Virus record (IMG/VR): IMGVR_UViG_2534681935_000037
Location: 1-6,236 of that record
Strand: one strand, 5' to 3'
Source: a virus
Lineage: Duplodnaviria > Heunggongvirae > Uroviricota > Caudoviricetes
DNA: 6,236 nucleotides
Position numbers: made by a program. This document shows positions 1-3,000 of the stretch, piece by piece. The first letter of the stretch is position 1. Each line of letters begins with the position of its first letter.

Positions 1-3000
1 CATTATGTCGTGGTTGAGCGGGATGAAAAGTACATGGCGAGTTTTGACGAGATGGTGCCGGAGTTCATCGAAAAAATGGACGAGGCACTGGCTGAAATTG
101 GTTTTGTATTTGGGGAGCAATGGCGATGAAGCATCCTCACGATAATATCCGGGTAGGTGCGATCACTTTCGTCTACTCCGTTACAAAGCGAGGCTGGGTA
201 TTTCCCGGCCTTTCTGTTATCAGAAATCCCCTGAAAGCACAGCGGCTGGCTGAGGAGATAAATAATAAACGGGGAGCTGTATGCACAAAGCATCTCCCGT
301 TGAGTTAAGAACGAGTATCGAGATGGCACATAGCCTCGCTCAAATTGGAGTCAGGTTTGTGCCAATACCAGTAGAAACAGACGAAGAATTTCATACGTTA
401 GCCGCATCCCTTTCACAAAAGCTGGAAATGATGGCGGCGAAAGCAGAAGCAAACGAGAGAGACCCGGCATGACAACAACAGAATGCATTTTTCTGGCAGC
501 AGGCTTCATATTCTGTGTGCTTATGCTTGCCGACATGGGACTTGTTCAATGACACCTCAGCAGGAAAACGCCCTTCGCAGCATTGCCCGTCAGGCTAATT
601 CTGAAATCAAAAAAGCCAGACAGCAGTTTCCGGATAAAAACGTCGATGACATTTGCCGTAGCGTACTGAAGAAGCACCGCGAAACGGTAACGCTAATGGG
701 ATTCACACCGACTCATTTAAGTCTGGCGATCGGCATGTTAAACGGCGTCTTTAAGGAGCGATGAACATGAAAAGCAAAATCATCAGGGAGCTACAGGCTC
801 CTTTTTTATTGTTCGCATTCACCCTCAAGCGTATTAACCAACAATTCAGGGATTAATGAAAGATGGCAGACATCATTGATTCAGCATCAGAAATTGAAGA
901 ATTACAGCGCAATACAGCAATAAAAATGCGTCGCCTGAACTACCAGACTGTATCCGCAACTCATTGTTGTGAGTGTGGCGATCCGATAGATGAACGAAGA
1001 CGCCTGGCAGTTCAGGGTTGTCGGACTTGTGCAAGTTGCCAGGAGGATCTGGAGCTTATCAGTAAACAGAGAGGTTCGAAGTGAGCGAAATTAATTATCA
1101 GGCACTGCGTGAAAAGGCAGAAAAAGCAACTAAAGGAAGCTACATCGTAGGGCATACATCTGTTAACCAGCACGGCAATTTAACAGGAGTTTTTGTTTGC
1201 CAAAAATGGAAAGGAGAACCCGGTGGCGTGATTGCGGAATGTCATGTTAACTGCCTGATTGAATCAGATGCTCAGGCTTATGCAAACGCTGAATTCATAG
1301 CAGAGGCTAACCCGGCTACCGTGCTGGAACTGCTGGATGAACGGGAAAGAAACCAGCAATACATCAAACGCCGCGACCAGGAGAACGAGGGGATTGCGCT
1401 TACGGTTGGGAAGCTGCGTGTTGAGCTTGAAGCAGCAAAATCAAAACTCAACGAGCAGCGTGAATATTACGAGGGAGTAATCGCGGATGGAAGTAAGCGC
1501 ATAGCAGAACTGGAAAAACAATGCGCCGAATGGGAGCGAAAAGCATTAAGCAACTTTGAAGAGTGTGCTGCGATGGCTGAACGTATCGAAGAGATGCAGA
1601 CAAAATCTGCACCAGATTCGTTTGGCATCATCGGTGAAAATATTCGAACACAGGACAATCGAATAACGTCAGATCCCATGTTTTGTGTGTATCAAAAGCG
1701 CGAAATCGCTGTTGATGCTGATTATGACCATGACCGGATTGTCTGGGTTGACGAAGATGGCAATGAAGCCAATAAACGCCATAGTCGTCGTCTCGAGCTA
1801 CTTCATGAAAACTTTCGAGAGCCACCAGAAAAATGGCGGCGCGTTGCTGTGAAAGATATTGATGAATTCGTTACCTGCTGTTTCACCGAACAGGGTTGTA
1901 AAGACTACCTGGCAGTCAATGGTCACAATCTTCGCTTGCCATTTATATATGTAAAAAGCGGTTTCAGGAACGCTGAATATATCGGCATAAGAAACTGGCT
2001 TGCTGGCATTCGCATCAAAGGAGAGTGATATGGCGTTAACACACCGCGAACTCTGTCAGATTGCGTACAAGTTCCTTAAGCGCAACGGTTTCAAGGTTTG
2101 TTTTCATGACCGCTTTATAGCTGTAACCAGTACCGGAGAACAGCCAGATGCTATGGGATTCAGAAATTCAGCATCATGCCTGATAGAGGCGAAATGTTCT
2201 CGTGCTGACTTGTTGGCAGATAGAAAAAAGCGTTTTCGTAAAAATCCGTCTCTTGGAATGGGCGACTGGCGATTCTTTATTAGTGAGCCGGGAATTATTT
2301 CAATTGAGGATTTACCACCTGGCTGGGGATTACTTCACGTTGTTAACGGAAGAGTACGGAAAGTACATGGGTGGCCCAAGGGTAATTGCTGTTGGGGTAA
2401 TCCTGACGATAAGCCATTTACTGGAAATAAGCAGGTTGAATGCGATTACATGTTGTCTGCATTAAGGCGCATGGAGTTGAGAGGGCACCTTAATGAAATA
2501 TATGACGGTGTAATTGTTAATAAGAAAGAAGGAAACGCGGCATGACCACTATTACCGACAAAGAACTGATTAAAGAAATCAAAGAGCGCATAGGCAGCTT
2601 GGACGTTCGAGACAATATTGAGCGCCGTGCTTATGAAATTGCACTGGCATCGCTGGAAGCAGAACCGATAGCGTGAGAATGCGGTGAAAACATAATCCTG
2701 TTTAACCCTGACACAGTTGAAGCATACGCAAAACGTGCGGAAATATCACCTAAACCACTATTCTCCGCGCCGCCAGCGCTGGTAGTGCCTGATAAGTTGC
2801 CGCGTGAATACAGAAACGGTTGGCCTCTTGCGTATAGTGATTATGCTGAAGGCTGGAACGACTGCCGCGAAGCCATGCTTCAGGGAGATAAATCATGATT
2901 AATCGTATCAAGCTGGAGCACATCCTCGAATATGCCAGGCAGCAGAGGCATATTGGTCAGCATTGTAAAATTCCACCAGGAGATATGGTTGAAATCATGG

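Follow-up and report, generated by a model that had tools for sequence, protein, structure and literature searches.

A stop codon introduced by a single-nucleotide polymorphism (SNP) has been described in a gene of a Shiga toxin (Stx) phage, namely the cI gene of VT2-Sa (PMC3430580). A comparable lesion was analyzed here on a 6,236-nucleotide (nt) stretch of Caudoviricetes DNA (IMG/VR record IMGVR_UViG_2534681935_000037, positions 1 to 6,236), and this whole stretch is referred to below as the window. The lesion is a premature TGA at positions 2674–2676, which interrupts a small accessory gene (2542–2898, plus strand) at codon 45. Both cases concern a single-nucleotide stop in an Stx-phage gene; the affected genes are different, and cI has a known regulatory role. 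The same lesion was found to be recorded already in several entries. The NCBI annotation pipeline (PGAP) lists it as "hypothetical protein, internal stop" (A9L45_RS35430, E4U64_RS09490, and JG531_RS09775), and the record of phage 2851 describes an "N-terminal half" (EP2851_05) and a "C-terminal half" (EP2851_04). Furthermore, Stx2c_WGPS6_08 and Stx2c_WGPS4_05 carry the label "pseudogene," and phage 1717 has a coding sequence (CDS) of 44 amino acids (ACI43102.1). In all of these annotated sister copies, the TGA is identical and occupies the identical position, so that no difference exists for the open reading frame (ORF); the window stands apart from them only by a strain-specific insertion of IS629 in the excisionase gene xis. 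W45* (Trp45 to stop) is an ordinary nonsense mutation that is already known from public annotation.

The closest intact counterparts are H0067 of VT1-Sakai (BAB19623.1) and WP_000207903.1, two proteins with identical sequences. They represent the same gene with the same neighbours (an Ea22-like gene, a 171-codon ORF termed ORF171, and a DUF551 gene) and are one base off in 601 nt. They differ from the gene in the window in having TGG (Trp45) and an uninterrupted 118-residue ORF, and their prophage has another integrase and another attachment site. More distant counterparts are gp36 of phage HK022 (AUM59812.1) and the wider phrog_5117 family, one UniRef entry of which is named "Eaa protein." These are lambdoid early-left accessory proteins encoded at the same genome position. 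HK022 gp36 has the same N-terminal module and the same C-terminal "GWNxCRxAMLxGDKS" end, whereas its middle module is different and the N-terminal module is followed by Tyr instead of Trp.

Reading Frame and Origin of the Premature Stop

The ORF at 2542–2898 comprises 118 codons including the stop site, that is, 44 sense codons, the TGA at 2674–2676, and 73 sense codons, followed by the terminal TGA at 2896–2898. Its ATG (2542–2544) overlaps the TGA (2543–2545) of the upstream ORF171 (2030–2545, plus strand), and its terminal TGA overlaps the ATG (2895–2897) of the downstream DUF551 gene (2895–3245, plus strand; Pfam PF04448), with an ATGA overlap in both cases. A Shine-Dalgarno-like AAGGA (2529–2533) precedes the ATG at 2542, and the DUF551 gene has its own Shine-Dalgarno sequence, GGGAG (2883–2887), ahead of the ATG at 2895. 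The original prediction had reported an in-frame TGA within an ORF that keeps ATGA overlaps at both ends, and the sequence agreed with this description. It had also held the frame to be genuine, which was borne out by the conceptual translation. Apart from the stop, which takes the place of W, the translation was identical to the annotated intact 118-residue protein WP_000207903.1. Moreover, residues 1–117 matched positions 1–125 of the 125 positions of the phrog_5117 profile (E = 5.6e-58), although the frame itself is interrupted at codon 45. Because the translation matches both WP_000207903.1 and the profile end to end, the reading frame is judged to be real and not a chance open stretch. 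The stop divides the gene into a truncated reading frame (2542–2676), which holds 44 codons, the premature TGA, and only the conserved N-terminal module, a predicted helical hairpin, and a stranded C-terminal remnant (2677–2898) of 73 sense codons and the original stop, which is identical to the intact allele.

The nature of the TGA was evaluated by comparison with intact copies. Over the 601 nt from 2400 to 3000, the window and VT1-Sakai showed one difference, which was A in the window and G in VT1-Sakai at position 2676. The alignment of homologous prophage ORFs that had been proposed earlier was carried out, and the sense codon at the site was TGG (Trp). It was present in VT1-Sakai H0067, in phiSTEC801-Stx1a, and in WP_000207903.1 of the prophages integrated at yehV/mlrA. 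A homolog search retrieved more than 1,600 relatives of the protein encoded by the mutated gene, and a diverse set of 27 members (E. coli and Salmonella) was aligned. Every member with the "ECGENIILFNPDTVEAY" module had W directly before it, and W preceded the "ECGENIILFNPD" module in every aligned member having that module, whatever N- or C-terminal modules were attached. The members with other middle modules had Tyr, Glu, Ser, or Lys at the aligned position, and none of the aligned members had Cys. Furthermore, none of the homologs examined ended at this position with a separate, start-codon-bearing gene downstream. On the evidence of these alignments, the lesion is a single G-to-A transition at position 2676 that converted the Trp45 codon TGG to TGA, with TGG as the ancestral and TGA as the derived state. 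A recent nonsense mutation was the first of the options that had been offered for this site, and it was favoured by the TGG of the intact copies and by the TGA being the sole difference from VT1-Sakai in 601 nt.

Distribution of the Two Alleles

The two alleles were searched for in 5,426 complete E. coli genomes with 55-mers centred on the SNP, with megablast able to seed only on the matching allele. The TGA allele was found in 111 genomes, and all 40 of those sampled were, or appeared to be, O157. The TGG allele was found in 398 genomes, which included O157, O111, O145, and others. At least four genomes (FRIK2455, F8092B, and Z852, all three of which were in both lists, and TX 376-2) had both alleles in different prophages; in strain TX 376-2, the sbcB prophage held the TGA and the yehV prophage an intact copy with TGG. 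Across the wider protein collection, 547 public contigs carried the exact 44-residue product and 997 the exact 118-residue protein. The TGA allele was also carried by the records of phages 1717, 2851, Stx2a_F349, WGPS4, and WGPS6. According to these counts, the TGA appears confined to one near-identical block of O157:H7 prophages and phages, and the TGG is broadly distributed. The direction of the change was judged from this breadth and from the homolog alignment rather than from a formal tree. As a side observation, the TGA occurred at 118 places in the 111 genomes, no genome having more than two, and one place was on a record classed as a plasmid.

Modules and Predicted Structure

The intact protein was modelled by AlphaFold from P0001 (99% identical) and 31 homologs. 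The confidence of the model was moderate (pLDDT 71, pTM 0.40). It comprised a helical hairpin (residues 6–19 and 25–39), a small beta unit (44–73), a linker, and a C-terminal helix (99–114). In this model, the stop removes everything beyond the hairpin. No Pfam match was found for the intact protein, and its PHROG matches were restricted to families of unknown function. A Foldseek search against viral structures with this weak model as the query returned only uncharacterised proteins with poor TM-scores.

The N-terminal module (2542–2675) was nearly identical in nucleotides to the start of HK022 gp36, with two mismatches in the first 122 nt of the ORF, and the homology faded in the few codons that directly precede the TGA. 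Many different C-terminal parts were found joined to this N-terminal module, among them DUF551 domains and K-12 yfdT. As judged from these fusions, the segment 2542–2675 is a widely shuffled module that ends at a mosaic junction. The names "valyl-tRNA synthetase" and "dTDP-6-deoxy-L-hexose 3-O-methyltransferase," which NCBI gives to the 44-residue fragment or its relatives, had no sequence support and look like propagated annotation errors.

Evaluation of Alternative Explanations

The best explanation for the whole of these observations is, with high probability, that the gene is an ordinary nonsense-mutated pseudogene. At the level of sequence, the part 3' of the stop has the character of a pseudogene remnant in that it lacks a canonical start with a Shine-Dalgarno sequence of its own. 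None of the observations contradicts this explanation; three points weigh against it. Firstly, a downstream remnant without further lesions is expected for a young mutation, yet it offers no independent sign of relaxed constraint in that part of the gene. Secondly, the position of the stop coincides exactly with the boundary of an N-terminal module that is widely shuffled, and this leaves room for the idea that the 44-residue peptide has some activity. Thirdly, the intact protein has no function assignment, given the lack of a Pfam match, the PHROG families of unknown function, and the uninformative fold matches. The other two options that had been offered for this site, expression of the 44-residue N-terminal part alone and incidental readthrough of the UGA, are best regarded as consequences of the mutation and not as alternatives to it; the 44-residue part is the product to be expected, and some readthrough by Trp-tRNA is plausible.

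The 44-residue peptide could itself be a functional product that has been selected or retained, for example by acting as an interaction module on its own or by competing in a dominant-negative way with intact paralogs of other prophages. The stop falls exactly where the nucleotide homology to HK022 gp36 ends, and the N-terminal module behaves as an autonomous unit, as it is joined to many C-terminal parts including DUF551. Moreover, it forms a self-contained two-helix hairpin in the model, and the allele persists in 111 complete genomes and on 547 contigs. However, neither the 120 best homologs nor the members of the clusters included a naturally stand-alone N-terminal module of another lineage, and the short entries were either further copies of this allele or calls cut off where a contig ends. 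The persistence is explained equally well by hitch-hiking in a successful clone, and a stop at this one among the many codons that a single substitution can turn into a stop is not statistically remarkable. Moreover, none of the modules has a known function. We consider a functional role of the peptide very unlikely. A related proposal is that the free 44-residue hairpin, together with an amount of the ancestral protein on the order of a percent, would alter dosage or exert a dominant-negative effect on the intact paralog of a co-resident yehV prophage and in this way helped the allele to persist in the Stx2c prophages of O157:H7; we give it a slim chance.

The UGA could also be a working leaky stop at which readthrough by Trp-tRNA(Trp) sets a low ratio of full-length to short product, as for the A1 protein of Q-beta. 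UGA is the leakiest stop in E. coli, and in K-12 reporters its readthrough was about 2% at 37 °C and about 4% at 25 °C, where Trp-tRNA(Trp) is in competition with release factor 2 (RF2) (PMC10570021). Readthrough would restore exactly the ancestral residue, and the frame 3' of the TGA is still intact. A recent mutation, however, would leave this part intact in any case. Since RF2 of non-K-12 strains is more active than that of K-12, the values from K-12 probably set an upper limit here, and a G after the UGA is not among the leakiest contexts in E. coli. Programmed readthrough is further disfavoured by the stop codon not being conserved among the homologs that keep the downstream frame; TGG was found in the 398 genomes and in every divergent homolog having the module. 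Moreover, no stimulatory RNA structure was detected, as the 101-nt segment at 2660–2760, which holds the UGA and the sequence downstream of it, folded no better than shuffled sequences (z = −1.16). No selenocysteine insertion sequence (SECIS)-like or other Rfam element was found near the UGA at E ≤ 1, and the sole Rfam match in the window was the ALIL pseudoknot of IS629. A functional leaky stop is thus highly improbable.

A third possibility is that two genes have arisen from the original one, with an N-terminal half and a C-terminal half translated separately, as annotated for phage 2851, where FM180578 lists EP2851_05 and EP2851_04 as two CDSs. The annotated C-terminal half begins at a CTG (window position 2698) without a Shine-Dalgarno sequence. 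Beyond the stop, a canonical start codon in frame is first reached at GTG 2785, which would give just 37 residues and likewise has no Shine-Dalgarno sequence. The start codons nearest to the stop, ATG at 2679 and GTG at 2684, are out of frame and reach a stop after 2–3 codons. Furthermore, a separate gene for the C-terminal half was present in no homolog. The two-gene reading of the phage 2851 record was rejected, since no credible restart codon follows the stop, and it retains hardly any probability.

Finally, the TGA could encode selenocysteine or stem from an error in sequencing or assembly, but the probability of this is negligible. A Cys codon lies two codons after the TGA (U-E-C), which superficially resembles a redox motif, and a change of one base might in principle be erroneous. 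However, the homologs have Trp and neither Cys nor selenocysteine at the aligned position, no SECIS-like hairpin lies downstream, and an error, which had been raised as a possibility earlier, was ruled out by the recurrence of the allele in 111 independently assembled complete genomes, five phage records, and 547 contigs.

Prophage Setting and Decay of the Region

The window covers the accessory region on the int-proximal, early-left side of a lambdoid prophage that is of the sbcB type (phage 2851/1717, Stx2c-type) and belongs to E. coli O157:H7. In order, the genes are the Ea22-like gene, ORF171, the mutated ORF, the DUF551 gene, ORF114, and xis (AlpA type), followed by int on the opposite strand. 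The tyrosine integrase gene (5340–6236, minus strand) is that of an sbcB-integrating prophage of the phage 2851/1717 type and continues past the end of the window. In strain FRIK944, int adjoins sbcB, and the published primer 2851-80 for the left junction of phage 2851 with sbcB (PMC3519850) matches window positions 6161–6180. Stx2c-associated phages at sbcB have been described as typical of bovine-biased O157 genotypes (PMC3519850).

The AlpA-type excisionase gene was compared with the intact xis of FRIK944. Its 5' part (3855–3941, plus strand) ends after codon 29, where it is cut by IS629/IS1203 of the IS3 family (3942–5251, plus strand; 1310 bp), and its 3' part occupies 5252–5359 (plus strand). 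The insertion is flanked by a 3-bp target duplication, AAA (3939–3941 and 5252–5254). The ALIL pseudoknot (RF01497, 4277–4393, 121.5 bits) stimulates the frameshift between orfA and orfB in this IS3-family element. The xis::IS629 junction of the window had no match among the 5,426 complete E. coli genomes. IS629/IS1203 was located in ORF114 in TX 376-2 and in ORF171 in ECP19-598. As the junction occurs in no complete genome and sister strains carry the element elsewhere, the insertions into the region are read as independent and recent. With 111 genomes for the TGA and none for the junction, the TGA is the more widespread of the two changes and hence probably the older one.

A block of about 1.7 kb is almost identical between the prophages of the sbcB type and those of the yehV type (window about 1380–3075 against L008, the TX 376-2 yehV prophage). 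In TX 376-2, the two copies of this block differ at two places only, the TGA/TGG site and a 2-nt deletion in the yehV copy, which cuts ORF171 to 58 codons. Hence, of two neighbouring genes, one has been lost in the first prophage and the other in the second. ORF171 belongs to families of unknown function (phrog_9263/631) and is intact in the window; its counterparts are located at 11354–11530 in L008 and 3131–3309 in L001. Elsewhere, it is cut short in three ways, to 58, 122, or 134 residues. Among the copies with TGA at codon 45, ORF171 has its full 171 residues in the window, FRIK944, and phage 1717, 134 residues in phage 2851, and 58 residues in WGPS6. Among those with TGG, it has 58 residues in VT1-Sakai and the yehV prophages and 122 residues in phiSTEC801. 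WGPS6 has both lesions, the TGA and the 58-residue ORF171, which suggests exchange between prophages. PGAP calls ORF171 "frameshifted" in spite of its being intact in the window, FRIK944, and phage 1717; this label apparently stems from the truncated 58-residue reference protein of the yehV prophages.

Several independent inactivations of neighbouring accessory genes in sister prophages fit relaxed selection on the region. The ongoing prophage decay that had been suggested earlier is reasonable in view of the IS-split xis and the varied gene losses in sister prophages. The TGA alone, however, does not mark a dead prophage, because it is also present in complete phage genome records (1717 and 2851); that phages 2851 and 1717 are viable is taken only from their deposit as complete phage genomes and from secondary citations.

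Proposed Course of Events and Biological Meaning

The sequence of events begins with the G-to-A change at position 2676, which turned Trp45 from TGG to TGA in the 118-codon accessory gene. After induction, ribosomes on the early-left transcript would start at the ATG at 2542 and terminate at the UGA at 2674–2676. A 44-residue peptide, consisting of the N-terminal module with its predicted helical hairpin, would be released without the beta module and without the conserved helix ("GWNxCRxAML") of the C-terminus. A small fraction of the ribosomes that misread the UGA with Trp-tRNA(Trp) would yield the exact ancestral protein. The DUF551 gene would lose its termination-reinitiation coupling and keep its own ribosome-binding site. 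Lambdoid early-left transcripts are N-antiterminated, and strong Rho-dependent polarity is consequently not expected. The loss may be tolerated, as phage growth probably does not depend on the gene and as many O157:H7 strains carry another prophage, at yehV/mlrA, in which the gene is intact.

The W45* lesion has no bearing on toxin production. The SNP at position 2676 separates the block of the sbcB type from the near-identical yehV copy, and it could help in assembly checks or typing. The lesion adds one more case to the piecemeal loss of accessory genes in the Stx prophages of O157:H7, in which sister prophages lose different genes.

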